Of a stretch of 64,000 bases of DNA, positions 14,419 through 58,329 are shown piece after piece. The DNA lies in contig JANJGN010000064.1 in NCBI GenBank assembly GCA_026770705.1, positions 1,736,001 through 1,800,000 on the forward strand. Direction: 5' to 3'. The translations under genes and the position numbers were made by a program. Position 1 is the stretch's first letter; each line of letters opens with the position of its first letter. Below the pieces are notes generated by a model. That model saw only the letters and a program-made list of their open reading frames with translations. It ran no database searches and was not told where the DNA came from. This DNA is from Isurus oxyrinchus. Taxonomy: Eukaryota.

Positions 14419-14492
14419 GGCGTTGTGACTTAGATAGTTAAAGCGCTTGTTTAATGTAAAAGCGATTCTGCTTTTAATTGTCAGATGTGTCT
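14419..14492 (+). pseudogene. tRNA-Thr(AGT) pseudogene
   Basis: GGCGTTGTGACTTAGATAGTTAAAGCGCTTGTTTAAT... versus GGCGCCGTGGCTTAGTTGGTTAAAGCGCCTGTCTAGT...; B-box destroyed. Confidence 0.7.
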
Positions 14493-15136
14493 TTATCGAT
14501 TTGTCGATGCATGGCTTTAAATAAAAACATTGACGTCCAGAGGCAGCATTGATAATTAGGCGACGACATACTGAAGCCAGATAGGATCATTGTTTCCTTG
14601 GGAAGTCATGCAGGAGGAACATTTTAAAATATTGCGGTGACAACTGTGGGCAAAGTTTGAATGATTTATGTTACTGCGCTTTAGGAAGGAACGAACGGGG
14701 AGAGATAAATGTTGGTGCTTTTTTGATGAAGTCCTTGGGCTGGCAGATTTATTTCCATCCCTACAATTTGTGATTTGGACTATTTAGAAGCTTTGTTGAT
14801 TTCAATGTGATGTCATCACACGTTCCCACTACAAACACCGTTAGAAATTGTTTATTCATTTTGTAGCTTCCGACTCCAATTATATCTTCCCGAAACCAAT
14901 GCAATCTTCAAAGCTTTAAATGCCCAGTGCAGATAACTGGCTAACAACAGTTGCGAGGTCACACACCATGTGTCAGGAGTGAGTAGTTGGTGCAAATTAG
15001 AATAATTGTAAAATGAAGCCAAAGGGAGGGTGCTGGTCTGCTTGAGAGGAAAACGGAGCTGGAGAAGATGAGTCACCTCACAAGGGAATGCATAAAAAGC
15101 TTGTGACGCCGCTTTTTAAGTAGTGATGGCTGCTCT

Positions 15137-15209
15137 CACTGGGCAGCTCTTTCGTTAGGGCACCAGAATTTTAATCTGAGCGTTCAAGTGATAGGTCCAC
15201 GTCTGGCTG
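15137..15209 (+). pseudogene. tRNA-Lys(TTT) pseudogene
   Basis: AGCTCTTTCGTTAGGGCACCAGAATTTTAATCTGAG matches AGCTCAGTCGGTAGAGCATCAGACTTTTAATCTGAG. Confidence 0.65.
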
Positions 15210-16082
15210 TTCACTTTCGGCTTAAGATGTTCACGCCCGGTGAAACGACCAAATGAAACAGCCTTGGATGCTGAACTCTTCAAAGGGAGCTGAGGAACTG
15301 GCAGCGTTACTTTGATTTCCAACAAAGGATCCACTCTCTTGCAATTGTTGTAGCCTCGATCAATTTAAATTCTTTCCTGGGTTTCCAGGTACTCCTTGTG
15401 TGAAGAGTGCTTCCTGACATTCCTCTTGCTTGGCTGGCACCTGCGCTGTGGAACTGTGACCAAAACAAAAAATCAACATTCAACCCCATTCTTCCTGCCG
15501 GTTGAAATGGCTTCTCTGTGTTTAAACTAACAATTCACTTTAACAGGTTAGAAGCCTCGATCAGATCATTTTTCTATAATGATGAGAATAGAAAAAACAG
15601 TTAATCCCTGAAAATGAAACTAAAGATTTCGTAAGGATCGTGGAGATGGCTGGTGGATTGATTGATGCGAATTTTTCCTTCAATGAGCCAGCACTGACAG
15701 GATGTTCCAAATGGCCTATTTATCGGCTGACCCCATTGTATGCTAATACGAATCGTGGATGATGAAATTTAACTCCAGATGTAACCGGCTGAACTCCAGA
15801 GCCCACTGGTCAATCAGCGCTGCTTCCTTTCCTAGCTTAGTATAATCCTGATGTATCTTCTGAGCAGTGTCTGCAACAACATGAGAAATAGGGACAGGTG
15901 TGTCATGTGTCTTAAGGCTTCACAAACCGTCCAGACCTTCTTGGTTGAATGTCCACCTCATTTGCTCCTTCCTCAAAATTCTTATTTCGTGCTGCCCTAC
16001 AGCCCCGTAACAGATGAAGAATTATCTATGAACTTACCGCAAAATAGTGAAATACGGTTCAAAACATAACTGTTTGTGACTT

Positions 16083-16157
16083 AGCAGTGTGGTAGAGTGG
16101 GTCATGTCTTACATATAGTCATGCAGACGATCCTGAGTTCAGATTTCAATGGTGCTG
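16083..16157 (+). pseudogene. tRNA-Thr(AGT)-like pseudogene (second copy in unit)
   Basis: GTGG..AGT.GGT...TAGT...CAG..GATCCTGAGTTC..AT..CA..GGTGC aligns to Thr-AGT 3' half GATCCTGGGTTCGAATCCCAGCGGTGC. Confidence 0.5.
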
Positions 16158-16929
16158 TTATTTATTTAAAATTAATCAGGCAAAGAGCTGAACATTTTCA
16201 GGTCGTGAGGAAGCATATAGAATGAATGTGAACATAAAGAAGCACAATAGGATCGAACTTCCCTTTGAAAAGAACGTGCACCGGTATGCTTATGTATCGC
16301 TCCCTTTTCAGTTCATTCCAATGTACCAGTGGGTTTGCCATATTACGTGAATGATAACTGCTTTGTGGTCAGTGCAGAAGTCGTGCAGGATATAACATTT
16401 TCTTTTCCTCTCTGTTTTTATCCACTGCATGCACTTACATGAAGAGGAGCAACATGGATCAATCTACGAACGTCTCAAAGGATTTGAGACGTTTTTCCAG
16501 CAAAAAAAAACAAGATTTTAAAGACATCTCAATCAAGCACTAATTTTGTAAAAACAAATGTTTTTCTCCGCTTTCATTCCACCTGGAAACTGTTGTTGGG
16601 ATGAACCTCACTGAATAGACGGTGACCGATAAGGTTTGGTCCACTATGGGAAGCTTTGAACTGAGGATGGCACAGGACACTAGGGTAGGACTGCAGCGAC
16701 CCTCGGAACACATTGACAGCCTTTTATTTTATTGCTTCCTGAATTTAAGATTCGCTGCTGAGGTCATCATTAATATTCAGGGCCTCGTTCCCAATCAGTG
16801 TTTAATTGTCCACCGCCTTTCACGACTGGAAGTGACAGAACTGCACAACTTAGATCCGATGTGTTGGTAATGGAATCACATCGAAAGCGATTGTCTATGA
16901 GGACAACAGACATGGCACAAAAAAAAAAG

Positions 16930-17420
16930 AAGAATGGTGTAATGGGAATAACATAAGTAGGATTTCTAAGTGTCCCTAAGAGTTTAGCCTCAGCTGGTGC
17001 ATCCCGTCTGGTTCTGTGCGCTACAATTTAGGAAGGATATTAAGGACGCTGGAAGGAGTGCAGAACAAATTCACGAGATGGCTGCTGAGATGAGGAACTT
17101 CAGTTAGGAAGATAGATTGCACAGGTTAGGACGGTTTCTGGGAGAAAAGAAGGCTGAATGGAGATTTGATAGAAGGATGGAAAATCACGAGGGGCCTGAG
17201 CAGATTTGATGGGAGGAAAGTGTTCCCGTTCGTGAAAGGATCAAGTTCGAGCTGTTGCAGATTTAAAGTATTTGCTAAAAAAAATACTGAGACAAAGAAA
17301 AATAAAACTTTATTTTTTCTCGCAGGAAGAGGTTAAGGTCTGGAATGCAGCGCCTGTGATTGAGGTGAAATGAACTGCGAGGGAAGAATTAAGAACGGAC
17401 TGAAATCTGGAAAGGAAGAA
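16930..17420 (+). mobile_element. CR1 3' ORF2 fragment inside duplicated unit
   Basis: tttaggaaggat, atgaggaacttcagtta, gagaaaagaaggctg, gatttgataga; paralogous copies at 20160-20770, 47110-47610 and inverted at 50480-51060. Confidence 0.75.
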
Positions 17421-17586
17421 CGTTCATGCTTGCAACTTAATATCTCACCTGAAGAAATAGAATCTTCAAAGTTTTGAAAGCCCAGTGCAGCTGAAGGTTT
17501 TCAATTCGCACAAATGAACAATAATATTTGTAGCGAAGAAGTGGGATGCAATTCAGAACTTTGCTTTGTAAACTCTGGTCAGTGTT

Positions 17587-17660
17587 CGGCTTGTGACTTG
17601 GTTATTTAAAACGCTTCTTTAATACACATGAGATACTCTGTTAAAATGTCAGTGGCACCT
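17587..17660 (+). pseudogene. tRNA-Thr(AGT) pseudogene
   Basis: Paralogue of 14419-14492; ends ...CAGTGGCACCT (Thr ...CAGCGGTGCCT). Confidence 0.55.
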
Positions 17661-18344
17661 TTATCCTTTCAGTCAATGCATGGTTTTAAATTTAACCAAT
17701 GACGTCCGGAAACAGAGTAGAGAATTAGGAGCCGATGTAATGAAGCCAAACGGGATAACCGTTTCTTTGGGAGGTTCAAGCGGAAGGAGCAATTTGAAAT
17801 ATTGCCGGCGAAAATGATGAGCGAGAGTTGAATTTTTTGCGTTACTGCATGTTCGCCAGGAATGAATGAGGAGGGATAAGTGTTGCAGTCCTTTTTGATG
17901 AGATCCTTGGGTTGACACTTTCTTCAACCCGACACTTTGTGATTTGCACAATGTATAGCGTTACTCCGAATAAGCTTCGTGGTTTTCAGTGTGACGGTGT
18001 CACCAGTTCCCACAACAAGCACGATATGATTTTTTTTAATCCACTTGAGAAATCTACCTCTGTGCCTTTTGTAACTTCCCACTCCAATTATATCTTACCA
18101 AAACCAAAGAAAGCTGCCAAGGTTTAAAGAGTCAGCGCAGATGCCTGGGCAACAGCAGTTGTCAAATCATACATTGCTGGCAAGGAACGAGTAGTTGGTT
18201 CAAATTATAATAATTGTGAAATGAAGCCAAAGGGAGGCTGCCGGTCTGCCTGTGAGGGGAGTGTGCTGCAGAGGATGAAATACCTAACTGGAAAATTGAA
18301 CAAAAGCTTGTGATATCTCTTGTTCAACAGTGATGGTTAGTAGA

Positions 18345-18423
18345 GGCCGAGTAGCTCTAGAGAGCTCTGTAGAGCATCAGACATATAACCTGAGGGTCCA
18401 GGCTTGAAGTCCCAGTCTGTGGG
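18345..18423 (+). pseudogene. tRNA-Lys(TTT) pseudogene
   Basis: GTAGAGCATCAGACATATAACCTGAGGGTCCAGGCTTGAAGTCCC versus GTAGAGCATCAGACTTTTAATCTGAGGGTCCAGGGTTCAAGTCCC; small duplication in the D-arm. Confidence 0.8.
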
Positions 18424-19303
18424 TTGTCTTTTGGATCAAGCTGTTGATTGCAAGTGAAACGACAAAAGACAGAACAATGGACGCTGACATCTTCAAGGAG
18501 AACTGAAGTAACGTTTCGTTTATTTCCAAGGAAAGATCCACCCTCTCGAAACTGGGGTAGCCTCAATCAATTTATGAATTGTTACTGGGATTCCTGATGC
18601 TCCAAGTGTGATAAGTGGTTCCTGACATATCCGTTATTTGGCACAATCATTGCGGACCTGTGGCAAAACAAAATGTTAAAATTCAATCCCGTTCTTGCCA
18701 CCAGAGGAAACGACTTCTCCGCATTTAACCTAACAATTCATTTTAACAGGTTAAAAACTTCAACCAGATCACGCTTCATTCTCCTGTAATCAAGGGACCA
18801 GAAAAAATATGAATCCCTGAAAGTAGAAAAAAAGATTTGTGCCGGGATGGAGGGACGTCGGGGGATTGACAGTGGGCGAATTTCTCCCTCAAAGAGCCAG
18901 TACAGACAGGATAGGGCAAATGGCCTCGCTCTGTTCTGTATACATTCTATGTTTATTCCAATCTAGGATGATGAATCTTTAACTTCAAAAAAACCCTAAT
19001 GAACTCGGGAATCGCACTGGTGAATCAGCACCGCTTCCATCCCAAGCTCAGTATAATCCTGGTGTTCCCTCTGAGCGGTGTCTGTAAGAAAATGAGAAAA
19101 TGGAGCAGGTGTATCATGTGTCTCACGTCTTTTCAATCATTCCAGAACTTTCTGTTTGGATATCCGTTTCAATTGCTCCTTTCTGAAAACTCTCAATTCC
19201 TGCTGCTCTACGGCCCCATAGCAAATGAATAATTCCAAACGAGTTTGCTGCAAATTAATCAAACACAGTTCAAAACAGGGCTGTGTGATGTTGCTTGTAA
19301 CTT

Positions 19304-19370
19304 AGCGCCGCGGATCGTTTCTTACATTTAATATTGCAGACGGTTCAAAGTTCGATTCTCAATAACGCGG
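19304..19370 (+). pseudogene. tRNA-Thr(AGT)-like pseudogene
   Basis: Paralogue of 16083-16157; begins AGCGCCGCGG (Thr GGCGCCGTGG), keeps GTTCGATTC B-box, D-arm deleted. Confidence 0.45.
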
Positions 19371-20159
19371 TTATTTATTTCAAATTAGTTAAGTAAAGAG
19401 CTGAACATTTTCAAGTCGGGAGGAAGCATATAGAAAGACGTGCGAATATAAAGAACCACAATATGGTCGAAATTCTCTTCGAAGCGAACATGCACCCCTT
19501 TTCTTAAGAATTGCTCCCTCTTCTTTCCATCCTGATGAACTTGTGGGTTTGCACTGTTACCAGAATGATAACCTGTTCGGGGTTATTGCAAAAGTTATGC
19601 TTTGGATGCCATTTTCTTTTCCTGTTAGACCTTTATCCGTCGCACACACTTTAAAAAAAAACGATATTACGGGTACATTTACAAAAGCCTTAAGAGATTT
19701 CAGAAGTAATTCTTCCAAAAAAACTTTAAAGATATCTCAATCAACCACAATTTATTTCAGAGCATTTTGTTCCCCGCTTTCATTCCACCCAGAAACTCTT
19801 CTCGACATGGTTCTCACTGAAGAAATGGGTGACGCTGTGGTATCTGTCATCGTGCTGGTGATGAGATTTGGGGCTTTTGCCCAACTGAGACTGGGACAGG
19901 GCTCCAGGGAAAAATTGATGCAAGGTTTGGAATATATTAACAACTTTTTTCTTTTATTCTTTTGGGGATGTGAGAATCGCTCGTAAGGTGATCATTTATT
20001 CGTGGAGCCTCCTTCTCCAGTAGGTGTTGTCCACTACCATCCATGACTGCATGTGGCAGGCTTACAGTGCATAAATCTGATCCGTTGGTTGTGGGATCAC
20101 CTCGAATGCGATTGCCTGTGAGGACAGGAGACAACATACTTAATGACATAAATAAACAA

Positions 20160-20770
20160 AGAGTATTGTAATGGGAATAAGATAAACAATTTTTGCAGAA
20201 GGTTTTACTTCAGTCTCCGCTGGTGCATCCCCTCTGGTTCTGGTCACTGCTCTTTAGGAAGGATGTGAAGATGCGAAGGATGTTGCGAAGAGGGCAGAAA
20301 AAATCACGAGAATGCTTCTTGGGATGAGGAACATCAGTCACGAAGATATATTTGAGAAGTTAGGACTGATTCCCTGGGAGAAAAAGGGGCTGAACTGAGC
20401 TTTGATAGACGGATTCAAAATTACGAGAGGCCTGGGAGTGTTCCCGTTCATGAAATGATCAAGATCAAGTTGATGCAGATTTAAAGTATTTGTTCACAAA
20501 GATCAGAAGTGAAACGGAGGAAAAAATAGAAAAAAAAGTTTTTTTTGAAGAAAATGCTTAGGCCTGGAATGCACCCCCTAAGAGGTGGAGGGAGGTTCAA
20601 GGGAAGCATTGAAAAGAAGATAAGACTGTTATTTGGAAATGAAGAACGTTCATAAAGGAACGTGGCGGGTAATGACACAAAGTGAATTGCTCATTCAGAG
20701 AAATGGTGCAGACATGATGGGTCGAATGACATTCACCTGCGCTGTGGCAATTCTGAGCTTCTGTCATTCT
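20160..20770 (+). mobile_element. CR1 3' fragment with tail
   Basis: Same CR1 segment as 16930, extending to gcagacatgatgggtcgaatgac...ctgcgctgtg tail. Confidence 0.75.
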
Positions 20771-24601: not shown

Positions 24602-25481
24602 TTAAATCAGTATCAAAATTAGTGTCCAAGGAAACGTCGCTATCTTCTTCAGCTCTTCCCTGAATTTAATTTGTGCAGCCGCATAAATAACCGTGTTTGT
24701 GCATGAACTCAAATACATGAGCATGTTTCCGGTCTGATGGGCGATGTACACAGGAGCTGTATAATCCGGGCGATCATGAAGGAGCAAACCACCGACTAAG
24801 GAACAAATGACCGCTGTCAACCACAACACTATAAAACTAACTGATACAGTGAACAGTAAAATAATAGATTTCCTTCGGTTCTGTATTTCCGGATCACTCT
24901 GATTCTTGCTGCTTTGACCCCGGAGCTCGTCTGGCTACTAAAATTCATCTGACTGTCAAAGAACTAAGAAGCAATATCAAAGGGAAAGGAATGCAAATCA
25001 ATAAAATGCTTTGTAGCCAAGTAAATGCACACCAAAAGGAGATGTGTATAATTCCAGGCTGTGTTGGAGACTCCTTTGAACATTGTTAACTGTTCGCTTA
25101 GGTTCAAATGCAAACCAATATGGTATGTTTTCTAAAAACGAGAGGGTACAGATTGATGTTTGAACTGTAGCCTTAGTTCGCACTATGCAATATGTTGTCT
25201 TAAACTTGTAAATACATATGGAGACAAACTGGTCAAATGTGAAGGAGAATGTAAACCAGACCGATAAATACACGTAGGTATTAACTGTGTACATTATGAA
25301 CTTGCAAATGGGTGTATAGTGCATGATTATTTGTGGAAAATGCATACCCAGGATTTTATGCATGAGAACATTGTTGAGCATGAGCAGTAGATGGCTGTTG
25401 CCATGGACACCATATAGAAAGAAATGCATTTTGAAAGGCCGCAGTTTCCTCTGGAGAGAATCTCGATTGTCATCAGGTTCG
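24602..25481 (-). pseudogene. GPR139-like GPCR second (main) exon, pseudogene
   Basis: Acceptor ctccctttttcccacag| at 25482 then (A)NLMTIEILSRGNCGLSKCISFYMVSMATA; TM3 SVWFTFSFTFDQFVSIC; ICL3/TM6 DPEIQNRRKSIILLFTVS; TM7 LSSCTNTVIYAAAQIKFREELK; stop at 24602. At least three frameshifts, one in-frame TGA (LTVR*), DR changed to DQ. Confidence 0.9.
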
Positions 25482-25574
25482 CTGTGGGAAAAAGGGAGAG
25501 TAAGTAGGTAGCATGGGCACTCAGGTACATTCCACAGAACATTATAAGAAATGTTTCTGTGCATTTCTACTCGG

Positions 25575-26440
25575 CGTTATATCCATATATTTGATTTATA
25601 ATATTGGCTTGTGTTTTTTGAACTTCCTAAATAAATATACGAACATGCACTCTATTGTGCTAAAATAGTTTCCAAGACAGTATTTTTGCGAAAGCCCTTA
25701 GGTGAAACAGAGACAAGAAGCATGCTAGGATCTCCAAAGTTGACATCGGACTTCTGGGAAATGACGCTGTGCACGTAATTGTTAAGAAAACTGAAACTGA
25801 TTGGGAAATACAAACAGACTTGGAGACGGGATATATGTATTCAATTAATTTTCAGCAGAACAGGGCCATGTCCATGGGCTCTTGCTAAAGCTGTGTGTCT
25901 AAAACTCGTGAAAATCTGTGAGATTACCAAGAGCTGATCAGAGTGTGTACTAGAGAGTTATGGGATGTTAGGTGAGAGTGCCTGTGTTAATCCTCAGCCA
26001 TCAGGCCTGTAGTGACCCGAGAGAAAGATGCTTCACAGAGTTAGGCCTTGTTGATTATAATCATATCCGTGGAGCTGGGATGGAATCATACAGCTGTTGG
26101 AGAACATTTGAGAATCGGACACTGCGTGAAGAATAGTTGAGCACGCTGGACCATGATGGATTTGTGAGAGACATTTGGACTAAACACAGTGCGAAATATG
26201 TGCTTGGAACTAGGCGAGAAATGCGTGAGACTTTCCATTGTTGTGTCAGCTACTTCAACTATAATTAATACTTTCTACTGAATACAATTAGCATTTAATT
26301 ACATATGTTTTGACTTTGTTTTTTTTTCATTTACAGTAAATGTTTTAAAAAGTAACATCTTGTCCATTGGTTTCTTCCATCGGGCTCCTTGGGGAAGTTT
26401 GGTTCTTTCAGGTAATTGATCCTCAAGTGGAGACAGTAAA
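25575..26440. mobile_element. Probable solo LTR-like insertion in GPCR intron
   Basis: Composition and 3' portion (tacagtaaatgttttaaaaagtaacatcttgtcc...) resemble shark LTRs; termini decayed. Confidence 0.35.
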
Positions 26441-30620: not shown

Positions 30621-31157
30621 GACTACCCTGACTCTACGTCCAAATACCCACTTACAATCTGATCAGCCCTTCGCACCCTGCGGTAAAATTCCAGTCATTA
30701 CCTTCAGCCCCATCACAAACTCCATTCCCGAGCCATTGACCATCCCATACCCCTCCCTAGGAACCTGGATAAGGACATGGAATCCTGCGCTTTTGTATTA
30801 TATCATCATCCTTTTTGCCATTTTGTCCTTTCCTTGCCACCCTCCCATCCCCATTTCCCTGTTGCTGAAAAGATGTTGACTAGCTGATTTTTTTTCTTCA
30901 GTTCTATTGAAAGCGCATTGATAGAAACATTTAACTCTTTTTTTTTCTCTCTGAACAGATATTGGCTGACCTGCTGAGTATTTCCAGTATATTCTATATA
31001 GATTTCAGATTTACACCAACGATAGTATTTTATCTACTCGATAAATGGAAGTTGTTTTTTGAATTTTGCACACCATGTATTATTGTCGTAATTATTGGTC
31101 TTAAAAAAAAACTGATTTAATCCTGATCCCTGTTATCTTTTTCGCTCTGATCTTCAG

Positions 31158-31328
31158 CCTGTGATATAACGATCTCACAAGTTCTGCTGCCGGGGATCTC
31201 GCCTCTGGTCTCAGTACCAGCTGGTCACTGACGAATCTGAACATTGATCTTAATAAATTGTGAGATTCAGGGGTGAAAATATTATCTGAGGCTCTGAGGA
31301 ATCTGGAGAGTAAAATACAGAAACTGCA
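31158..31328 (+). pseudogene. NLR (NLRC3/NLRP-like) leucine-rich-repeat exon, disabled
   Basis: tcttcag|...|gtaagt, exactly 171 nt, phase 2-2: L*YNDLTSSAAGDLASGLSTSWSLTNLNIDLNKL*DSGVKILSEALRNLESKIQKL; two TGA stops. Confidence 0.9.
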
Positions 31329-33312
31329 GTAAGTACAGACTGTGTGATATTATGTTTATAAGAGCAGGATAGAAAACAAAACAATGTCAGCACAATTACT
31401 TGTATAATAAATAAAAGCTGTCCAACTTTATTGGTGCCTGTGATAAAGTTATAAATTTAAAAATTCTCCATTTACTCTGATTCATGTAATTTCTGTCTCT
31501 AATCCCATCTATGGCATGTCCGTCCCACAGAATTTGTGCTGAGGGTGCAGGGGAATAAAGGACCCCTCCCCCTCCTCAGAGATGGTCTGTTCCCCGGTCA
31601 CAGGAGTCCTGGATTTGCGATAGTAAGAAGAGGGTTTCGAGGGCAATGCGCTTTACAACACCATCCTCAGATTATTGTTTGTGAACAGTGATGCACACAT
31701 GAACACGATGTTTTGTGGTGACCAGAGGCTCTCCTGTGTCCATCCATTAGGCCACTCTCTCTCTCAGCTCTGTAACCCATCTCACCATCAGTAATTGCTG
31801 CCCAGACTCTAGGCTTCCCAGCTCCAGCGCTTCACCTTCCCTCATAGTCCGGAAGAAGGCTAAACTGGTGCAGCTCGACTGTCCATCATGACGCCACTGG
31901 GATGACTCCTGTATGGAGCCATTTGGTCGGCACAAATCAACTCTGACTCGGCCCTTCAGAGAGGCTGACATCCCTAACAGGCAATGCTGCTGCCTGGGCA
32001 TTGCCAGTGTCTGGGTGGGAATGATCTTTCTACCAATTTCACTTTCATCATAAGTCATAAGTGAAGCTGTAAGCTTCACCTTGTGTGCTGCACTCACGGC
32101 CATTATCCTCATCCCCACCACAAACTCCATCCCCTGATCACTGATGCTCCATGTCCTCTAGCGACCCAGGACAAGAACTTGGGGATGCTATGATTTGGTC
32201 TTGCAAGCAGGGAAATTATCCCTTTAAGGTCGTAATCACAGAATTACAGCGGGTGTGACGTGGTTCAACACCCAACAGAACATCACAAATGTTAGATTCA
32301 GAATCAACTCTTAGGCTGTACTGAACTGTTCCCACGTTACTTCCATTTACAGTAAGCTAACACTTAGTCGCACATGTGATATATATGAGACATCAAGTCC
32401 CTAGGCTATCCCTCTCTGAACTAGCTATTCCCAAAGCTGCTAGAATAACACTTACAATCACCCCTCGGCTGGTCTTCTGATGAGGATGTAGATCCTGCTG
32501 CCAGTGACTATCTTTGGCTCCAGGTGGGTGTATTATACTGCAGATCACAGTGCACACTTCTACAGCTCTCTGCACAAAATTGTGATTGCTCTTTCTCTGG
32601 AGGCCAACTTGGCTTTCTTGTTAGCTTATGTTCTCACTCACTTTAAACAGAATTTGATCGTTAATCAAGAGGGACAAAGGCCAGCTTGTTTCTGCTGATG
32701 GTTGACCCATACAGGTTTATATACCCTATTGTCTGATTATGTTAGCAGACGCTAAACCAGTTTACCTACTCAAGTGTTAATAGTCACTTGAAACAGTTGT
32801 TTGACCACATTTCCTGCTGCAACTTGGCTCTCAAAAAGCAAATTCTCACTCCAGGAGATACTGAGTGCTGTCCTTCATGCACCATCATCCTGTGTCATTT
32901 AATCACACCTGCACTTCCATTTTGTTTCTTTCTTACCTCCATCTCCCCCATTTCCCTGGCAGGGGCGGATGGTCGTCTGAGGCCTCGATCACCCCAGCGT
33001 CAGTTGCTGAAATATAACGTCTGGTGGGAAGCCCAGCCGAGAAACTTTACTCTCACCCATTGCTTAAAACCTACTGGCGGGTGAGCTTAAAATTCAAACT
33101 GCTATCTCTAATTCTACCTTCACATATAGTGTCTGACTTGTTGAGTATTTCCAGCATTTTCTATTTATATTTCAGATTTTCATCATCAATAGTATTTTCC
33201 CTAGATATAATGGAGTGTCTCACATTGTACTTTACTATTGTCATTAATGCTGTACCCTCAGACACCGGAGATTTACCCTGATTTTTGTTGGTTTTCTCTC
33301 CCATATCTGCAT

Positions 33313-33483
33313 TCTAAAGAATAACAATCTCACAGGTTCTTGTGCCAAGGATCGTGCCTCTGCTATCAGTACAAACCAGTCAGTGACAGATCTGGACATG
33401 GGGCTTAATCAACTGGGTGACTCAGGAGTGAAACTACTGTCTATGGCTCTGCAGAACTTGGACTGCAAATTACAAAGAATGAA
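33313..33483 (+). pseudogene. NLR LRR exon, open frame but mutated acceptor
   Basis: 171 nt: LKNNNLTGSCAKDRASAISTNQSVTDLDMGLNQLGDSGVKLLSMALQNLDCKLQRM; donor gtaagt intact, acceptor reads ctgcat rather than ctgcag. Confidence 0.9.
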
Positions 33484-34629
33484 GTAAGTACCAAACGGTG
33501 TGAGAGTATGTTGATAATAACTGAATGTCTAACAGAACATTTTCAGCAAACTTATTAGAAAAAATAATTACCACTGTCGATTATTACTAACGTCAGTTAT
33601 TATGGTATTATTGGAAATGAAACTGCATGTCCTCCGCCTCCTGTTACTTCTGTAAAATCCCCAGCCTATGCGATGTCAGTCCAAGAGATTTGTGTGCCAA
33701 GGGTGTGGGGGAAAAATGTGACGGTGCACCCAGGGGCACTCTCCCCCTTCTCAGAGGTGGATGGCTGCACCCAATAACAGCAGCCCTTGATTTATGAGAT
33801 GGAGGAGAGTGATTATGGGGAAATGCACATCCCAACATTTCCTTCATACTACTCCATGTGACTAGGGACTGATACATGATCACTTTATTTGTGGTCTCCA
33901 TAGGCTGTCCTGTGTCCATCCTTCAGGCCATTCACTCTCTCAGCTCCACAACAATCTCACTGTCAGTGATTTCCTGCCCTGATTCCAATCTCCCATGGCC
34001 AGCATTTCATCTTCCATTGGCTTAATGGTGACAAGATCTGGATGTAGCCAACTATCTTTGATGGTTCCAAGACATTGTGTGCTCTCTTGTACAAGCACGT
34101 AAATTTCCATAATTACTCACCCATCGAAGACATACAAGAGCCTGCGGTGGTGACAGCCGGACTTTCCATCATTGAGACACAGGGATGCTTCCTGCTTGAA
34201 CTCACTGTGTCACGGGAGCACATGAGTCAATTCTGACTGACCGGGGATCACCACCGAGAGGCTGATATCCTTCTGGCAGCCAATGCTTCTGCCTGGGTAT
34301 TGCCAGTGGCTGCGTGGGCAAAACCTTTTGACCAAGTTCACTTTTATCCTTCGTCACTTATAAGGCTGTGAGGCTAACACTGTGTACTGTACTCACAGCC
34401 ATTATCTTTCTCCCCATCACAAACTTCATTCCTTTACCATCCTCCTTCCATGTCCTCACACGAGTGACACGGGTTTAAGGTGTGGAGTCCCCTGATTTGT
34501 TTTGTACCCTAGCCAGTTTAATCACGTTAATACTCGGTGCGTTTCCATTTTCTACTAAAAAATCCCTGCAATTTGCTGCCACTTAAAACCGGTCAAGACC
34601 CTGCTTTTCCCAGTTCTATTGTAAGCTCA

Positions 34630-36043: not shown

Positions 36044-36255
36044 CGCCCCCCCCCCCCCCCCCCCCACACACACACCTTAAACCAGCTTATATTTCAACTT
36101 TTTCTTGGACTCGAACTCAAGTTCTGTCGAACGGTCATGAGGACTCGAAAGGTCAACTCTTTTCTTCTCTGCCGATGCTGCCAGACCTGCTGAGTTTTCC
36201 AGGTAATTCTGTTTTTGTTTTCGATTTCCAGCATCCGCATTTTTTTTGTTTTCAG
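35745..36255 (+). mobile_element. Penelope-like element 3' end / pseudo-LTR, comparatively young, with C/CT microsatellite
   Basis: Ends gatgctgccagacctgctgagttttccaggtaattctgtttttgttttcgatttccagcatccgca, the best-preserved copy of this family in the window. Confidence 0.7.
36120..36158 (+). ncRNA. Degenerate minimal type I hammerhead ribozyme motif in Penelope pseudo-LTR
   Basis: AGUU-CUGUCGA-A-CGGUC(AUGAG)GACUC-GAAA-G-GUC-AACU: stem I AGUU/AACU, stem II, GAAA, GUC site; core deviates from CUGANGA and GAAAC. Confidence 0.5.
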
Positions 36256-43364: not shown

Positions 43365-43438
43365 GGCCGGTTAGCTCAGATGGTTAGAGCGTGGTGCTAA
43401 TAACGCCAAGGTCGCGGGTTCGATCCCCGTACGGGCCA
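43365..43438 (+). tRNA. tRNA-Ile(AAT), intact
   Basis: GGCCGGTTAGCTCAGATGGTTAGAGCGTGGTGCTAATAACGCCAAGGTCGCGGGTTCGATCCCCGTACGGGCCA, 74 nt, full cloverleaf, anticodon AAT, intact A and B boxes. Confidence 0.97.
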
Positions 43439-43883: not shown

Positions 43884-44133
43884 GACCAGTTAGCTCCTAC
43901 ATAAAGGCAAAATGCTGCGGATGCTGGAAGTCTGAAACAAAAACAAAACATGCTGGAAAGCAGAGTCTTCAGAGTCATACGGACTCGAAATTTTAACTGT
44001 GTCTTTCCCTCTACAGATGTTGTCGACGTGCTGAGTTTTTACAGCACTTTCTGTTTTTGATCAGTTAGCTCCAATGGGTAGAGGATGATGCTAATAGAAT
44101 TGAAGCTCTCGGGCTCGATCCCCATTGAACAAC
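43884..44133 (+). pseudogene. tRNA-Ile(AAT) pseudogene interrupted by a Penelope-type insertion
   Basis: GACCAGTTAGCTCC [insert 43898-44061] CAGTTAGCTCCAATGGGTAGAGGATGATGCTAATA...CGGGCTCGATCCCC; 11-bp direct repeat CAGTTAGCTCC flanks the insert. Confidence 0.85.
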
Positions 44134-47619: not shown

Positions 47620-48640
47620 CTTGCTTGTGGCCCTGGGTCTCAGGTTCCAAGTCATAGGAAAAAATTTTCAAGAAGAATTACCAAATTCCTTCTGCAATCA
47701 TGATTATGGGTTTCGGTAAAGAAGCTTTCAGTCGGTAAAATGTAGGGACTGAGCTGTGCTTTAGTGTCCGGATTTGAAGAGGGTCAGGAGGGAGTTCAAG
47801 AACCAAGCAAAGTTCCAGTGGGGGAAAACTGAACGTTAGGCGATGAGGAAAAGCGAGGAATGTGAATGGCGTTCACCATCTTTCAAATTTTATTCAATGA
47901 AGGACCCAAAGGAAAAAAAAACATCTCTGTGCCAAGGAGCTGCTGATTAGTGCAGTGACCGGAAATAGAACTGAAATTAGCAGAAGTCTGGTGTTTACTG
48001 AGGGAGAGGAAACGGGGTAAGGAAGGAAACAAAAGACGGTGGATTCTGAATAGCTGCTGTCAAAAAGCAAAGGAAATGACGGAAAAAAGTAAATTTTAAA
48101 AATGAACCAAATGGTGGCAGAGATTAAAATCTAACTTTCTCTGTCATGTTACAGTCAGCGTTTACAAGATGCACGTTTATTGTCAGATTATTAATGAATA
48201 CTACTTGTATACACGTTAACAAATCGAGCATAGCCCGGTTCCTCTCCGTTTTAAAATACCTTTTTCAGCAAACTGTCCTCGATTCAATCTGCCAAAGCAC
48301 TATTTTCACAGAAATTACGATTCAGCCCAATTGAGGTGAAAGAGCCAGTTTCTGCGTTAACGCACGCACGGAAATGTCGCCTGACTGTGTGGGTTAAGGG
48401 CCCGTCTTTTCAAGGGGCTCTCATATCCCGGGAATCTCTGAAAACAACCGCAGATTCTTGACTCTGTTGATAAACAATCTTTATCTGCATCTGTCTCTCA
48501 CATACCAACCAATTTCAAGCTCTGTTTCTAATTGTGCGTGCTTTCCCTCGATGAATACCAGAGCAATCTCCTCGTCGGGGAATTGAACACTAGTCTCAGA
48601 CGTGACAAATGGAGATATTCACCACTATACTAACGAGTAA
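47620..48640 (+). repeat. Segmental duplicate carrying tRNA-Asp (partner 54490-55560; partial copies 21250-21550 and 22310-22760)
   Basis: ttcaccatctttcaaattttattcaatgaa, ccaaggagctgctgat, ctctgtcatgttacagtca shared. Confidence 0.9.
48568..48639 (-). pseudogene. tRNA-Asp(GTC) pseudogene
   Basis: TACTCGTTAGTATAGTGGTGAATATCTCCATTTGTCACGTCTGAGACTAGTGTTCAATTCCCCGACGAGGAG; 72 nt, anticodon and T stems mispaired. Confidence 0.9.
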
Positions 48641-51260: not shown

Positions 51261-51299
51261 CCTGACTTGGACATGCCTGGCTTAGTTTGAGTGCAACAA

Positions 51300-51828
51300 C
51301 AGTCGGTATTGCACTTGGAACCTTTAAGCATCATTGACCACCGAAGATCATTTCATACTTATGTCCAGCCTTGAGTATCACTTTGATGATATTAATTGTT
51401 GGCTTGTTTTGTATGTCTTACTGCAATGTGTCTATGCGATTAACAAGTGAACAATTCTGCCAACTATTTCTGCACTTGAAAAATCATACGAAGGACCCCT
51501 TTCACCATCTGCTGATGAAGTTGTCCATGGCTTCGATCTGTTGTGGAAATGACATGACCTGTCGATGATGAATTCTGAAGTTGAACGTGATTCTGAAACC
51601 GTCTTCGAATATAACCTATATCTTTGCGCATCCTTTAGCTCGTCTGCTGTTAATCCTGACATGTTCAGCCTGCGTAGACCTTCGTTCACAAATGTAGGCC
51701 AATTTTAATGGCTTGCTTGTCTGGCGCGGGCATTAGAGAAGCAAAGAACAATAGCTAAGTTTAAACTTTTTGAATTCGGCTGGTAGTTCAGCTACATCCG
51801 AATTCAATCTGGAGAATTTTGTGGACAT
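51300..51828 (-). mobile_element. Gypsy/Ty3 LTR retrotransposon gag relic
   Basis: MSTKFSRLNSDVAELPAEFKKFK..DKQAIKIG..NEGLRRLNMSGLTADELKD / IFEDGFRITFNFRIHHRQVMSFPQQ.EAMDNFISR / YDFSSAEIVGRIVHLLIA; includes the gag Q..E..D.F..R motif; frameshifted. Confidence 0.7.
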
Positions 51829-52279
51829 TTTGACAAAGTCCCTTTGACCATCCATCTTCTATGGGACTTGGACTGACTTTCACTGTGGCTGCTTTTGCTG
51901 TCTTTTCCTAAGTTGTGCCAATATAATTGTAGCCTTCTCTGGCCTGATTTTTATGCAGTTTTCTTTATTTTTATTTTCATTCTTTGACTCTCCCTCGCTC
52001 CCTGTCAATCCAATACATGCCCAGGTCAGTCGCCTTTCTTGACTGGCATAATCTGGTGCTGGTTCTCTTCACACCCCCTCCTACTCACTGAACGGACAGG
52101 CCATGCATTGCCATCTAATCATGAAGGATCCGTCAGCTTCCCTGTGCTTCATTTGAACACTATCTGACTCTGCCTTAGACCCTTTTCTGGACAGTCAGCG
52201 CGTTGTTTTCTCAATGCTCTCCGAGCTTCGACTCTTTTTAGGTCTGATAAAAACTCCAAGAGTTGCTTCATGCCATGTA

Positions 52280-53060
52280 GCACAAACTGATATTGTTCAC
52301 CAATCGTATCTGTAGTTAATCCTAATGCCAATCTGTCTGACCATTGCATAACACCATTTTCTGTTGTTATAATGATGGAGGCGCCAAACACCATTCAAAA
52401 AGAGGGTAACTGCTTTGAGATACATTGCCCCAGTCAAGTACATATCGTTAAATATGGTGGGCTGGTGATGAGCATAGCTGCTTTTCAAGCAGTTGGTCTG
52501 CAACAATCGCAGTTTGTTCATTTTACATTTCTGAGTTCAGGAGCTCCAAGCAGTAGTGGATTCTGATGAGATGAGATTTTGTTCTGAAAACACATGCGGC
52601 TCTAATTCAAGCAAAGTGATTTCCAAGGTCCACATTTATAAGGGAGGAACATAGTCATGGAGGGATTTGAAATTGAGAATGAGGATTTTATAATTGAGAC
52701 ATTGGCGGGTCAGGAGCTAGTTTGCTAGGTCAGCAAACGTGGCGGTGTTTGGTACGGTTTCATATATTTAGATGAGGGACACATAAATATTTGTCCACAG
52801 GTAGAACGTTTGAAGGCATCACAGCGTTGCCTTGTTCTGCTCACAGGCAACAGTGAAGCTATGAATGAATTGCACGGATCATTTCCCTTCTAGTAAATCA
52901 TGCTGCTATCCCTCAAAGGCAGATTACAAAACCGATGCACATTTTCCCCTAGAATATGCAGCATTTCAGTCAGATTTCTCAGGATATGCCCTACATCACT
53001 TCGGATAAACCATAAATATGCAAGGAACTGAGCACAGCCTTGAAATTTTCACAGGAAACA
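52280..53060 (-). mobile_element. Zisupton/HMGXB3-like (KDZ) transposase relic, C-terminal part
   Basis: Reconstructed: VLSSLHIYG..HILRNLTEMLHILGENVHRFCNL; LPVSRTRQRCDAFKR; after acceptor ttttcag at 52584: PLLLGAPELRNVK / IVADQLL..SSPAHHI*RYVLDWGN. Motif order matches remembered HP(V)T..R, PEL..N..VAEQL..SP..HI..R. Confidence 0.5.
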
Positions 53061-53089
53061 TTGAGTTGGGAAAGAGGTGAAATATTTAA

Positions 53090-53600
53090 AGAAATCATCT
53101 CAAAAAATTGGAAAATGCGGGAAAGATGAGAGAGAGCTGGAAAAGTGGAGGGGTTTAGGAAGGCAGTCCAGAATTTTAGACCAGGTCAACTGAATACACG
53201 GTTTTCGATGCTGTAGAGATTAAAACCCGGAATGCACAAGATGGCAGAACAGGACGAATCTGGAAGATTTGTTGGGCTGGAAGATGTTGCAGAGAAATTA
53301 AAAGTCATGGAGAGATTTTAAAGTAAGGATGAGGGTTTTTAAATTGTGGCATTTCTGGGGCAGGAGCCAATGTCGGTCAGCAATCACGGGGGTGATTTGA
53401 GAACTGTTCTTGGTTCAGGTGATGTTCCAGGCGGCAGAATTTTGGATGAGCACAGGTATGTGTGGGGTGGAAGATGGGAGGCCGGCCAGGTGAACACTAG
53501 AATAGTCATGTCTAGAGTGAACAAAGGCGTGGATGAGGGTTGCAGCAGCTGAATAGCTGAGGCAGGGTCGCAGTTGGCCGATGTTTAGCATGATCAAGTA
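53090..53600 (-). mobile_element. L2 LINE 3' ORF2 fragment
   Basis: NIGQLRPCLSYSAAATLIHAFVHSRHDYSSVHLAGLPSST....LIQNSAA, canonical L2 C-terminal region. Confidence 0.85.
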
Positions 53601-55495
53601 TTGAGTGTTCATCTGATAACAGCCTGTCAGTCTGCCTAATATCATGCAGTTTTATCAGAGACATTAGCTGTAAAATTGATACAGCGTCAGCCATTATTGT
53701 TCAATATTAGGATTGTTACTGTATCTGTATCTCTGGAACATTATGTCAGTGCAGGACATTTCGTATTTCACTGCAATCAGAATCTGAACAACATGTCCCA
53801 GACTGTGGCCAAGGAGTGAGAGCCTTTAAAGCTGAAATTTGCCCCTTAAGACGCCCTATTGGGATCATTCCCTGCAGGATATTTGCTGTTCATGAACCAT
53901 TAATATCAATAATTCCTGACACTGGGTTCACTGAGAAGGATGAAGAGTCAGTGAACAGTGCGGTGTGTCACAGTTGTTGTGTTCCTGACTCTCCCCCTCC
54001 CGGTAGTTTAGTGAGGACTCAGTCTCCCAGAGAATGTGTTGTCCCCAATTCCGCCCGATTCCCGTCTTTTAACACTGAGTGAACTGACAGCTGTCAGTAA
54101 CTCCAGTATCGGGATCCTGGTGAATTCATTGTGGCTCAGTGTTTAGACAACACAATAACGAACAAGGTTCATAGAAAATATGATAGCTCAGATTCAGGAA
54201 GGGATGAGAATTGTGTGCAATGTGCGCTGTCGACATACTGATTCAGGTTCCTGACCGTTACGGAAAAAGAAATGATACTTCTTAGATTGTGGCTGTTATG
54301 GTCGTATGGCGTACTAGATAAGGCATTTTACTTCACTGTGCCGTGCAAGGTTATCAGAAGGTTGTCGGTTGAAGTGCTGTAATTTGTCCTATGATCATTT
54401 CACGCAGATAAATTTCCGTGCACAGAAGTTCTCGAACACTTTGTGTGTAGAATTCTTTTTCTAATTCTCTCGGTAAAAACTCTGACTGTAACTCTTTGAC
54501 GGTTGCACTGGGTCCTAGATTCCCAGTCAGCGGAAATAGTTTTGAGCTGGTCTTACTTGCTCAAGGTTACAAAGAATTGTATCGAATCGCTCCTGTAATC
54601 ACGAGGAAGGACTTCGGTAAATGGTCAGACAGTGCGTTAAATTTAGGGACTGACTTGTGGTTTGGTGACGGGAATTGAAGAGGGTTACGAGTGAGTTCCA
54701 GAGGCAAACAGATTTACAGAGGAAGAAAACTGAATGATTGGCGAGGAGGGAGAGAGAGGAATATGAATGGCCTTCACCATCTTTCAAATTTTATTCAATG
54801 AAAGATCAAAAGAGAATATAACCTCTGTTCCAAGGAGCTGCTGATAGTGCAGAGAGCAGAAAATAGAGCTGGAATGAGGAGAATCGTCGTGTTCACTGAG
54901 GGACAGGCAATGGGATAAGAAAAAAATGTTGCGAAGAGGCGAGGATGAAAGGCAGGATCCAGAAATGCTGCCGTCAAAAAGCAATGGAAATAAAGGGAAA
55001 ATACGTTTAATAAATTAATATAATGGTGGCAGAGTTTATAATGTAATTTGCTCTGTCATGTTACAGTCACTGTTTACAAGATGCGCGTTTACTACCAGAT
55101 TACTAATGAATTCTGCCTCGTTAGTCTTAACTAAATCGAGTGTGGCCGGTTTCTCTGGGTTTTAAAATGCCTTCTCTCAGCTAGCTGCACTGGTTTCAAA
55201 GTACCAATTCACAAATTTCACTTAAATTCCGATTCAGCCCAGTTTAAGTAAAAGAGCAAGCTTTGGGTGTTCGGACACATAGGGAACGGTCGGCTGACTG
55301 TTGGTGTGAAATGCCTTTCCTCTCAAGGAACACTAATGTTCCGGGATCTGTAAAAGCAGGCTCAGTCCCTGAATCTCCCTGTCGCTGAGACGAAACCTTT
55401 ATCTACATTCCATCAGGAACATCAACCGACGTCAAAGACATTTCCAATTTCGTGTGTTTCTTTTCATGAAGATAATACGACTACGCCTACGCCCA

Positions 55496-55555
55496 CGCCC
55501 CGTCGGGGAATTGAAACCCGGTCTCACGCGTGACAGGCGGGGAAACTAACGAGGA
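55496..55555 (-). pseudogene. tRNA-Asp(GTC) pseudogene with D-arm deletion
   Basis: TCCTCGTTAGT[12 nt missing]TTCCCCGCCTGTCACGCGTGAGACCGGGTTTCAATTCCCCGACGGGGCG. Confidence 0.9.
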
Positions 55556-55849
55556 ATTACTGAACTTTGCTATAGAGTTGAGAAACCTGGGGTTAACTTC
55601 ACTCAGTAACAAATGAAAATGCTGAAGTGGCACAATGTGGGAGTGGAGGGTTGCGGGCTTCCTTCAGTTTTCTCAGAGAGTGGAAGGATGACCGGGTACC
55701 TTATCTGATTGAACTTGCTGTTCATCAATTGCAATCAGGAAATTATGATGCATAATAACCCACAAATTGTTAGATTTGTTGAATGAATGAAATTGAAATG
55801 TCCTCCAATCAGCACATTCACATCGTGAATCATTCCTCTTTTGTGTAGT

Positions 55850-56402
55850 GTCTCGGTTCATCAATGGGAAAATCTGATCGCCATTGAGATCTGAGCATGT
55901 CATATTCACACCAAACTTCCAGGGAAGTTGCCAATCTCGGGAATTGTCATTGAATACACGGCACACGCCTATTCACAATCATGCGCACGACTGACGAAAA
56001 AATGTAAATCCTGCACCTGCAGGGAAAGTCTAGCAGAATTCGGAGACAATGAAAATGTCTTCAATTCGGGTTATCTGTTTTGTTGCAAATCCTGGCAAAA
56101 TAGCATTTCTTCTGACCACAATTTGGGACTTTTAATAATGATAGGGATTTATTTTTACTCTTGAATCATTTCCCGAACAGGAACACAAGGAGGGAAAAAT
56201 ACCCAACTTTTGAAATGAAACGTGAATATATTTGTGTTCACCCTGCAGTGCCGGGGAGATCCCTACCCTTATGCTATCCAGCCTCCAGCTGGGCCGCAGT
56301 CTTGCAATTGTGCAGCAGCTGTTTATTATTCGGTTCAGCTCTGTCTTTCCCGTCACTGGCTCTCCATCCTGTCGATGGTGCTGTCTCATGAACTCCGACA
56401 AG
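55850..56402 (+). mobile_element. Zisupton/HMGXB3-like transposase relic, cysteine-cluster (CxC5-like) region
   Basis: HQWENLIAIEI*ACHI...YTAHAYSQSCARLTKKCKSCTCRESLAEFGDNENVFNSG; then exon ccctgcag|56249-56402|gtaacg with AGEIPT..LAIVQQLF / YYSVQLCLSR. Confidence 0.45.
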
Positions 56403-56429
56403 GTAACGCATTTGCGTATTAAAATCACA

Positions 56430-57000
56430 AGACAGAGACTGTTTGAGTGAAACATTTGGTCGCAGACGAAGTGTTTCGTTCACCAGCCAGCCGCCCCTGA
56501 GAATTACATGCAACATATTTAGTTGCTTTATAAATGCCTGGCTACTGGTTCATATATGCACTCACCCTTGACAGCCTCAATCGCCTTCAAGGGTAAAGGC
56601 CTCCTCCCGTCTGCTGTAGAAGCTTGACCCCTGCAGTTTGCTTTCGGTAGTGCATCGCTAGTGAAGAGTTGATGTACCAGACGGCTTCCAACCAGATTTC
56701 TCTTTTCCAAATTTTTCAGGTTCTTCAATTGTTCAGGCATGTTGCAGCTCCACCTTCTCTTGGCCACGGTTCTGAAATTTGAGCTCCTGATAGTCTAAAG
56801 ACTGCAAATGTGTGTTGCTACTAATGGGATGTGAAAACTGGACATTGTGCTTTCATTTTCTGAAAGAATAGTACTTGTGTCATATCTCCGCTCCCATTCC
56901 CGTTCTTGAATCCTGCCTCCAGGAGGTATCCTTTGTTTGAAAATGGTTTCTTTTTGACCCTGGAGTTATGCAATTTCGACATGCATGAGTGGTTGATTGG
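56430..57000 (-). pseudogene. BEN-domain gene relic with short introns
   Basis: Exon 56801-56566 (ttgcag|...AAG G|gtgagt): EKVELQ / PEQLKNLKNLEKRNLVGSRLVHQLFTSDALPKANCRG....RRPLPLKAIEAVK; next acceptor ttctcag at 56497 with VNET..ATKC; upstream coiled-coil-like LEA/RIQEREWERRY. Confidence 0.6.
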
Positions 57001-57299
57001 CAGTTTCCCCTTGAGGTCTGCCATAATGCTGGGAATGACTGCTGGCCTTTTTGCGAAAGTGGAAAATAAATGTTTCAATGGCGGGGAGTAAATCATCATA
57101 AACAGCGAGTCAAAGCTTGATTGTTGAGATTTGTCATTTAAATTTCCAGTCTGCAGACAAGAATCACTCATTGGATTCTTTAAACATCAAAGTTTTAGGC
57201 TGAGCTAAGCAGGCCACTATATGCCTTACAGAGGGTTGGAACAAAGGGTTTTTACATTATCTGAAATGTGACATCCCTGACAAGGTCGGCATCCACATC

Positions 57300-57580
57300 C
57301 CTTGAGAATGGTTAAGAGTCAACCACATTTCTGCCGGCCATATAGGGTAAGGACAACAGATTTCGACCCTGAAAGAGCAGTTGTAAACGTGATATATTTT
57401 TATAACAATCGATGACAGCTTAATGTGGGTCAACATTATTTAGATTAGATTTACATCCCAGAATTTCTCAAACAATTTTAAATTCGATCAGCTGCCAGGG
57501 TTGGATTTGAACCTTGAGCATTCACTCCTCTGGGTTACTAATCCAGTGCCATGAGCAGAGCATATGGTAATGACTCGCAT
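57300..57580 (-). mobile_element. SacSINE1/DeuSINE-like tRNA-derived SINE
   Basis: gttaagagtcaaccacatt, ggtaaggacaacagattt, cagctgcc..ggttggatttgaacc, gggttactaatccagtg. Confidence 0.7.
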
Positions 57581-57659
57581 TCAAGTACTATAACCAAATT
57601 TTCAGATTACACCAGAAAAGGTTCGAAAGAATGTTGCAATGAATAAATATGAAGTTTAC

Positions 57660-58310
57660 AAAAAAAAAATGGACAGTTTAGGTGAACCGGCCAAAATTTG
57701 GCAGATGGAATTTAACGTTGATAAGTGTGAGGCTGCCCATTTTGGCCGGAAGAATGACAAGGCGACTGATTATTGAAATGGAGAGAACCTTCAGAATGCG
57801 CCAGTTCAGAGGGATCTGGGTGTCCAAATGCATGAAAAGCTGAAAGGTACTTTGCAGGTACAGCAGATAATAAGGGAGGCAAAGGGAATTTTGACATTTA
57901 TTGATACAGGAGTAGAGAATTAACATATGGAAGTATGTTTGCAACTGTGCAAGGCATTGGTTTGACCGCAACTGGAGTACTGTGCACAGTTTAGATCCCC
58001 TCATTTGAGGAACGATATAATTATATTGGAGGTGGTTCATAGCAGATTCACTAGATTGATTTCAGAGTTGCAGAACTTTTCTAATAAGGATAGATTGAGA
58101 AGTCTAGGCCCTTACCCGCTAAAGGTTAGAAGAGTGATAGAAGATCTAATTGAGATATAAAAGATGCTAAAGGGGATAGACAAAGTAGACGTGGAGCAAT
58201 CCAGATCGAGAGGCCATAGTTAAAGGCAAAGGGGTGGTAGATTTAAATCAGATATGTGGAGGAATTACCTTTCTCAAAGGATAGTGGAAGTCACTCCCTC
58301 AGAGTGGACA
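57660..58310 (+). mobile_element. CR1 LINE 3' ORF2 fragment
   Basis: tggcagatggaatttaacgttgataagtgtgagg (WQMEFNVDKCE), cagagggatctgggtgtc (QRDLGV), ctggagtactgtgcacagttt (LEYCAQF). Confidence 0.9.
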
Positions 58311-58329
58311 GGGTGCACATTAATTTAAT

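Follow-up and report, generated by a model that had tools for sequence, protein, structure and literature searches.

What is the decayed gene that lies between positions 52,280 and 57,000 of a 64,000-nucleotide stretch of the shark Isurus oxyrinchus (the window; contig JANJGN010000064.1, 1,736,001 to 1,800,000, forward strand), and how did it come to be there? An earlier note on this DNA had proposed a spliced transposase of the KDZ/Zisupton type, from which HMGXB3 derives, carrying an antisense or intron-nested BEN-domain gene. The window is part of a 3-Mb contig in a genome of 4.98 Gb, and comparison with the rest of that genome points to a different transposon. Very probably, what survives in the window is an internal, dead piece of an old transposon of the EnSpm/CACTA type, whose full form pairs a transposase with a head-to-head BEN gene, and this fragment was multiplied passively together with a unit of transfer RNA (tRNA) genes.

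Judged from its sequence, the BEN-domain relic on the minus strand (56879-56213) is real and spliced. The BEN relic of the earlier note is confirmed, although its introns measure 107 nt (56878-56772) and 171 nt (56565-56395) and not the roughly 70 nt that had been claimed. A main-exon profile built from 11 copies (A2) retrieved one protein, the basking-shark model P0001 (expectation value, E, 1e-13; 53% identity), whose sequence spans both predicted BEN exon joins. Residues 34-138 of P0001, which cover both exons, match the BEN structure of NACC1 (PDB 8yzs, 7bv9; E 3e-8), the sole significant PDB match of this protein, and a 12-row profile (A4) likewise matches the NACC1 BEN domain (E 5.5e-6). 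Pfam matches were weaker (BEN, E 0.09-0.17; DUF4806, E 0.017), the latter family being called a BEN subtype in PMC11075544. The Atlas BEN cluster match was 0.92, with PF10523 on 31% of the cluster members, and an AlphaFold model of P0001 (predicted local distance difference test, pLDDT, 47.5) was too poor for a fold search. Among five dispersed representatives the ratio of nonsynonymous to synonymous substitution rates (dN/dS) was 0.48 for both BEN exons.

The BEN gene is dead in every copy examined. Two splice sites are dead in the window copy: the upstream-exon donor reads AC where the C7 and C15 copies have GT, and the last-exon acceptor reads GG, as in nearly all copies of the tRNA unit, where the C10 and C15 copies have AG. 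A 20-nt deletion at about 56738, found only in the window lineage, puts the first codons of the main exon out of frame. The C17 and C188 copies retain the BEN 5' exons, but with stops. The C15 copy (C15:35492574-35493276) has 82-94% protein identity to the basking-shark model yet is frameshifted, which suggests that it is an orthologous fossil.

The same C15 segment is the probable ortholog of basking-shark LOC144691243, and that model may itself be a transposon fossil. In the C10, C17 and C188 copies the BEN exons are preceded on the 5' side by further exons, which hold a coiled-coil-like stretch as well as a short N-terminal module bearing the motif CLVFWI.E. We take this build to resemble that of BEND5-type proteins.

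A search with P0001 placed the main BEN exon at no fewer than about 134 loci (hand count; best 150 of 388 candidates scored). Five are solitary copies, on chromosomes C7, C10, C11, C15 and C23. The remaining copies, at least about 129, lie on small contigs, at C20:79-81 Mb and on C17, and their membership of the tRNA unit is drawn from their location and from the copies examined, a minority having been retrieved. What the solitary copies have in common with the window is limited to about 55960-57513 (65-70% identity), and DNA of the C7 copy gave at least 45 matches across many chromosomes (best 40 of 87 candidates scored). Alignment of 15 loci revealed a sharp terminus, CCCTACCAGAAAA and then TTTGACAT. 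The former is a terminal inverted repeat (TIR): of 20 loci, 10 have an inverted copy of it at the other end of the element within 10 kb, and extension brings the number to 11. Subterminal 7-mers are about 8-30 times denser near the ends (11 elements; the motifs were chosen as frequent at ends), AAATGAT occurring 6.75 times per kb near ends compared with 0.43 inside. Short subterminal repeats are a feature of EnSpm/CACTA elements. Most of the TIR-bearing copies are internal deletions, and the copies are 25-35% diverged.

Two further observations concern this family. At L106:501-4760 two family elements, both flanked by a pair of TIRs, are separated by 156 bp. The TIR-bearing derivatives at L107, L112, L114, L120 and L121 share an internal segment that neither the BEN nor the transposase query matches. 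Some of these derivatives have long purine-rich low-complexity tracts, and the shared segment is possibly a further exon set or a second partner gene.

A second gene came to light when long BEN-bearing copies were compared, and a search with it gave 12 matches. The sole genome-wide match to Transposase_21 falls at a locus of this family (E 0.07, 23.3 bits; 18 of 18 candidates scored), and another relic frame matches the same Pfam family with E 6.5e-4 and 19.4 bits. The motifs of the transposase relic also fit those of animal EnSpm transposases. At five loci (C3, C24, C23, C11 and C1) the BEN gene on the minus strand and the transposase on the plus strand are arranged head-to-head, and at three of them (C3, 6.2 kb; C24; C23) both TIRs surround the gene pair. 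The transposase is located 5' of the BEN gene, and the two are neither nested nor overlapping. The idea of a BEN gene paired with an opposite-strand transposase was thus correct in that BEN is transposon cargo and the strands are opposed, and wrong in the family named and in the nested or overlapping layout. The window copy itself is without termini, transposase and BEN 5' exons: no transposase was found in the window plus 20 kb beyond or in the other unit copies checked, and the TIR has no match in the window or in four other unit copies at the equivalent place. On the strength of DNA homology, the window copy is assigned to the family as an internal fragment.

How this fragment became so abundant is suggested by its surroundings. 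The stretch 55700-57250 has at least 40 full-length matches of 86-100% identity (best 40 of 217 candidates scored), and it lies in a segmental unit of more than 50 kb that carries tRNA-Ile, Gly, Glu-like and Asp genes. Collinearity runs from window position 36254 to at least 78247 (the window plus 20 kb beyond), and other copies extend the shared DNA leftward; flanks of more than 40 kb are collinear between copies at 85-99% identity. The unit copies lie on many contigs, in both orientations and at a spacing of 50-600 kb, and the variation among them resembles neutral decay. Both unit subfamilies share a flank with a tRNA-Asp gene downstream of the site of the BEN copy, which indicates one insertion followed by duplication.

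A tRNA-Ile(AAT) gene of the amplified unit lies at 43365-43438 (Rfam, 59 bits), with a weaker second copy at 44058-44133 within a short tandem repeat. At 53122 the window lineage is without a 700-950-bp tRNA-bearing piece that is present in other unit copies. Segments 47673-48640 and 54572-55358 are an old internal duplication of a tRNA gene plus flank (73%), and the unit seems to have been assembled from repeated modules of this kind.

We propose that the transposase and the BEN gene were divergently transcribed from a shared central promoter, and that the BEN protein would have bound the subterminal repeats, helping the assembly of the transposition complex or the regulation of the element, much like TnpA in maize En/Spm. 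By this analogy the BEN gene likely acted as the element's DNA-binding helper. One copy would have landed upstream of a tRNA-Asp gene and decayed there, to be multiplied passively by segmental duplication of the tRNA-gene unit and not by its own transposition, while the element family would have become extinct long ago. A long extinction is suggested because the copies are so far apart and because the C15 copy is near the basking-shark model yet frameshifted. Passive amplification is suggested because the flanks of the unit copies are long and collinear, TIRs and transposase are missing, and the same broken splice sites recur in the unit copies.

Several results weigh against this account. Both Transposase_21 scores fall short of the 28.6-bit Pfam cut-off, Pfam found no Transposase_21 match in 17 further relic frames, protein searches with two transposase relics found nothing, and the AlphaFold model of the transposase relic (pLDDT 35) is unusable. 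The assignment to EnSpm rests in part on general EnSpm motifs. Both genes are present in only 3 of 10 transposase-match loci (C3, C24, C1) and 2 of 8 non-unit BEN copies (C11, C23) in the DNA covered. Direct repeats that could be target-site duplications, 2 bp in 2 of 12 elements and 3 bp in 1 of 12, are near chance in copies diverged by 25-35%. On the left, the 350 bp next to 55927 match no dispersed copy. Finally, dN/dS of the main BEN exon is about 0.5 even among unit copies, which is unexpected under pure passive copying; that of the last BEN exon in the same set of unit copies is 2.5.

The low main-exon ratio would be expected if the BEN fragment in the tRNA unit had once been a working, domesticated multi-copy host gene family that spread under selection with the cluster. 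Main-exon dN/dS is 0.52 both within the window subfamily and between subfamilies, whereas shifted frames give 0.9-1.7 and the intron 1.3-1.4. The main exon is also open in many copies, and zebrafish DUF4806/BEN genes lie in a tRNA-rich block of Chr4R (PMC11075544). However, the window subfamily has a broken last-exon acceptor and a broken upstream-exon donor and is missing the BEN 5' exons, which survive on C17 and C188 only with stops. The ratio moreover comes from only 55 codons and non-independent pairwise counts, beside a last exon at 2.5, and we consider a host gene family improbable. Less probable still is that the entire unit of more than 50 kb, its BEN and tRNA genes included, forms a single giant mobile element. 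Its dispersal in both orientations over many contigs would suit such an element, yet the copies are mosaics whose internal order varies, and no transposase or helicase frame of at least 150 codons was recognised in the window or in 15 other stretches, in which the unit ends were not reached. DIRS, Harbinger and a Dada-like targeting of tRNA genes were also considered; ARAGORN found no plausibly placed tRNA beside the non-unit copies, and no targeting is claimed.

The KDZ/Zisupton transposase with its antisense or nested BEN gene fares worst, and we regard it as largely refuted and extremely unlikely to be revived. The letter motifs on which it was built are present in the six-frame translation. 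Those at 52400-53060, however, read in two different frames of the minus strand, and the cysteine motifs read on the plus strand, which rules out a single gene. The motif VADQL..SPAHHI is the reverse complement of the decayed tRNA gene at 52449-52512, PV..T..R lies in a piece of long terminal repeat (LTR) at 52833-52931, and Gypsy LTR accounts for the remainder of 52280-52930. None of the non-unit BEN copies, five in number, has 52280-53060, a segment that also matched none of the expected profiles; this is the outcome that the earlier note had itself named as refuting its proposal. The proposed plus-strand exon at 56249-56402 reads the last BEN exon in antisense: that exon occupies 56394-56213, and BEN thus extends past 56403 into the proposed exon. 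In the dispersed copies dN/dS of the plus frames is 0.77-0.88 compared with 0.48 for the BEN frame. The supposed donor at 56403 has no GT in C10, C15 and C7, and the same bases are the minus-strand acceptor. What remains is the cysteine frame at 55829-56161, whose 111 codons are stop-free in most of 21 copies, with splice-like ends. Its DNA is part of the element that carries BEN, and dN/dS is 0.65 among poorly aligned dispersed copies. Among unit copies, by contrast, the ratio is 0.99-1.11, 261 of 500 shuffled versions of the 4.7-kb region contain an open frame of at least 111 codons, and 55927-56212 matches the left-internal profile of TIR-bearing copies (E 3e-12) with frame-breaking indels of 8, 20, 2, 7, 5 and 6 nt. 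The frame has no match in Atlas, and its profile met two repeat proteins and nothing usable among 1.84 billion protein representatives. No frame tested from the window or the copies matched KDZ (PF18758) or CxC in Pfam, and these searches brought up nothing like HMGXB3. Searching the genome for KDZ and CxC5 also found nothing, but as the controls gave no match either, that result carries little weight. The family, for its part, already has a different, Transposase_21-like transposase.

The preferred EnSpm/CACTA fragment lies among other debris (Table 1). ARAGORN at a lowered threshold calls orthologous copies of the tRNA relic at 52449-52512, whereas Rfam detected neither this relic nor the one at 55496-55555 in the window. 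The Gypsy-type remnant consists of a gag-like part with leader (51288-52162) and LTR pieces at 52268-52376 and 52833-52931; its relative L166 has two LTR-like repeats 5.3 kb apart and Pfam matches to rve and Integrase_H2C2 above the cut-off. The remnant of a long interspersed nuclear element (LINE) at 57600-58317 is presumably CR1-like. A Slo/KCNU1 channel pseudogene at 52200-55400, raised by a Slowpoke_C match below the cut-off (E 0.0027) and a likeness seen by eye, was ruled out, as PDB searches were blank, the Slo loci of this genome are elsewhere and the DNA is LTR plus tRNA relic. Old tandem duplication is seen in 14260-20653 (about 3.2 kb, 69%) and in 30955-34457 (about 1.2 kb, 67-71%). 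A 192-codon open frame at 25001-25576 (minus) resembles, by eye, part of a G-protein-coupled receptor and matches no Pfam family. Long frames in the unit and beside the window (L027:9012-9998 minus and L022:3553-4754 minus) we take to be a Penelope-like element.

Table 1. Features of the window, in window positions, with the observations that define them.
Feature	Position	Strand	Basis or remark
Part of the segmental unit of more than 50 kb with tRNA genes and BEN fragment	36254-64000		Collinear on many contigs
Gypsy-type LTR retrotransposon remnant, interrupted by tRNA relic	51288-52931	minus	68-75% identity to locus L166
Decayed tRNA gene, kin of the unit's tRNA-Gly(TCC); reverse complement reads VADQLLEKQLCSSPAHHI	52449-52512	plus	Alignment to C17 tRNA-Gly
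tRNA-Asp(GTC) pseudogene with 13-nt deletion	55496-55555	minus	Called as tRNA in other unit copies
Apparently non-coding internal transposon part, holding K.C..C..F.D..FN.G	55927-56212		Between left subterminal repeats and BEN 3' end
Last BEN exon (FMRQHH...CCT.ARR)	56213-56394	minus	P0001 and NACC1 matches, dN/dS; 3' end approximate
Main BEN exon, covering the domain's N-terminal two thirds	56566-56771	minus	Acceptor and GT donor intact; profile matches
Upstream exon region, short coiled-coil-like stretch (by eye)	56879-57140	minus	P0001 residues 14-30 align; 5' limit approximate
Last stretch common with dispersed copies, intronic	57141-57513		Beyond it BEN 5' exons, transposase and right TIR are missing
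LINE reverse-transcriptase remnant at the element's cut-off point	57600-58317	plus	tblastn matches to other window repeats

If the EnSpm/CACTA assignment is right, the family would be fossil evidence of a separate BEN gene, with predicted DNA binding, on vertebrate EnSpm/CACTA transposons. BEN genes borne on transposons would provide a concrete route for the scattered, lineage-specific BEN gene expansions in animals, and they offer an origin for the NACC1-type BEN domain that can be tested. They also call for caution, as 'BEN genes' in databases, such as basking-shark P0001, may be annotated transposon fossils. A bolder scenario, which we think rather unlikely, is that a separate BEN protein replaced plant TnpA as the binder of subterminal repeats in one lineage of animal EnSpm elements, that its vertebrate branch donated the BEN domain of NACC1 and NACC2, and that one captured shark copy spread more than 100-fold through the tRNA block, perhaps under selection.

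Among known systems, the nearest solved relative of the transposon gene is the BEN domain of NACC1, a host BTB-BEN transcription factor, although the transposon gene has a different N-terminus. Zisupton/KDZ elements and HMGXB3 have in common with the shark family no more than the broad notion of a multi-exon DNA transposon that bears chromatin-related cargo, and the transposase and termini of Zisupton/KDZ differ. Animal CACTA elements with TIRs starting CCC have been described (PMC1636069), and the animal TRC elements (SmTRC1 of Schistosoma and the TRCs of Tribolium and Aedes; PMC1636069) resemble the shark family in this TIR start, in a distant similarity to Transposase_21 and in having many internally deleted copies. 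SmTRC1 produces extra proteins through alternative splicing of one unit, whereas the shark family has a separate, divergent, spliced BEN gene, and a 2-bp target duplication is reported for TRC elements (PMC1636069), compared with the near-chance 2-bp repeat in 2 of 12 shark elements.

Plant CACTA elements carry a second open reading frame (PMC4158355), and in maize En/Spm TnpA assists TnpD (PMC1636069). Like the shark family, these elements have a two-protein design, a short conserved TIR and repeat-rich subterminal regions (PMC4158355, PMC1636069), although the plant TIR starts CACTA and the shark TIR starts CCCTA. TnpA has tandem helix-turn-helix motifs, whereas the second protein of the shark family is a separate BEN protein; TnpA is reported to occur as a protein of its own in flowering plants alone, whereas in animals it forms one protein with the transposase (bioRxiv 10.64898/2026.08.24.746577). 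BEN as a whole word is absent from the main text of that preprint, and we found no account of a BEN gene on an EnSpm element in the full-text literature available to our search, Repbase reports lying outside it. A parallel in design is provided by PIF/Harbinger elements with a Myb/SANT partner (PMC11601247), which likewise combine a transposase with a separate DNA-binding gene, although both the transposase family and the DNA-binding fold differ from those of the shark family.

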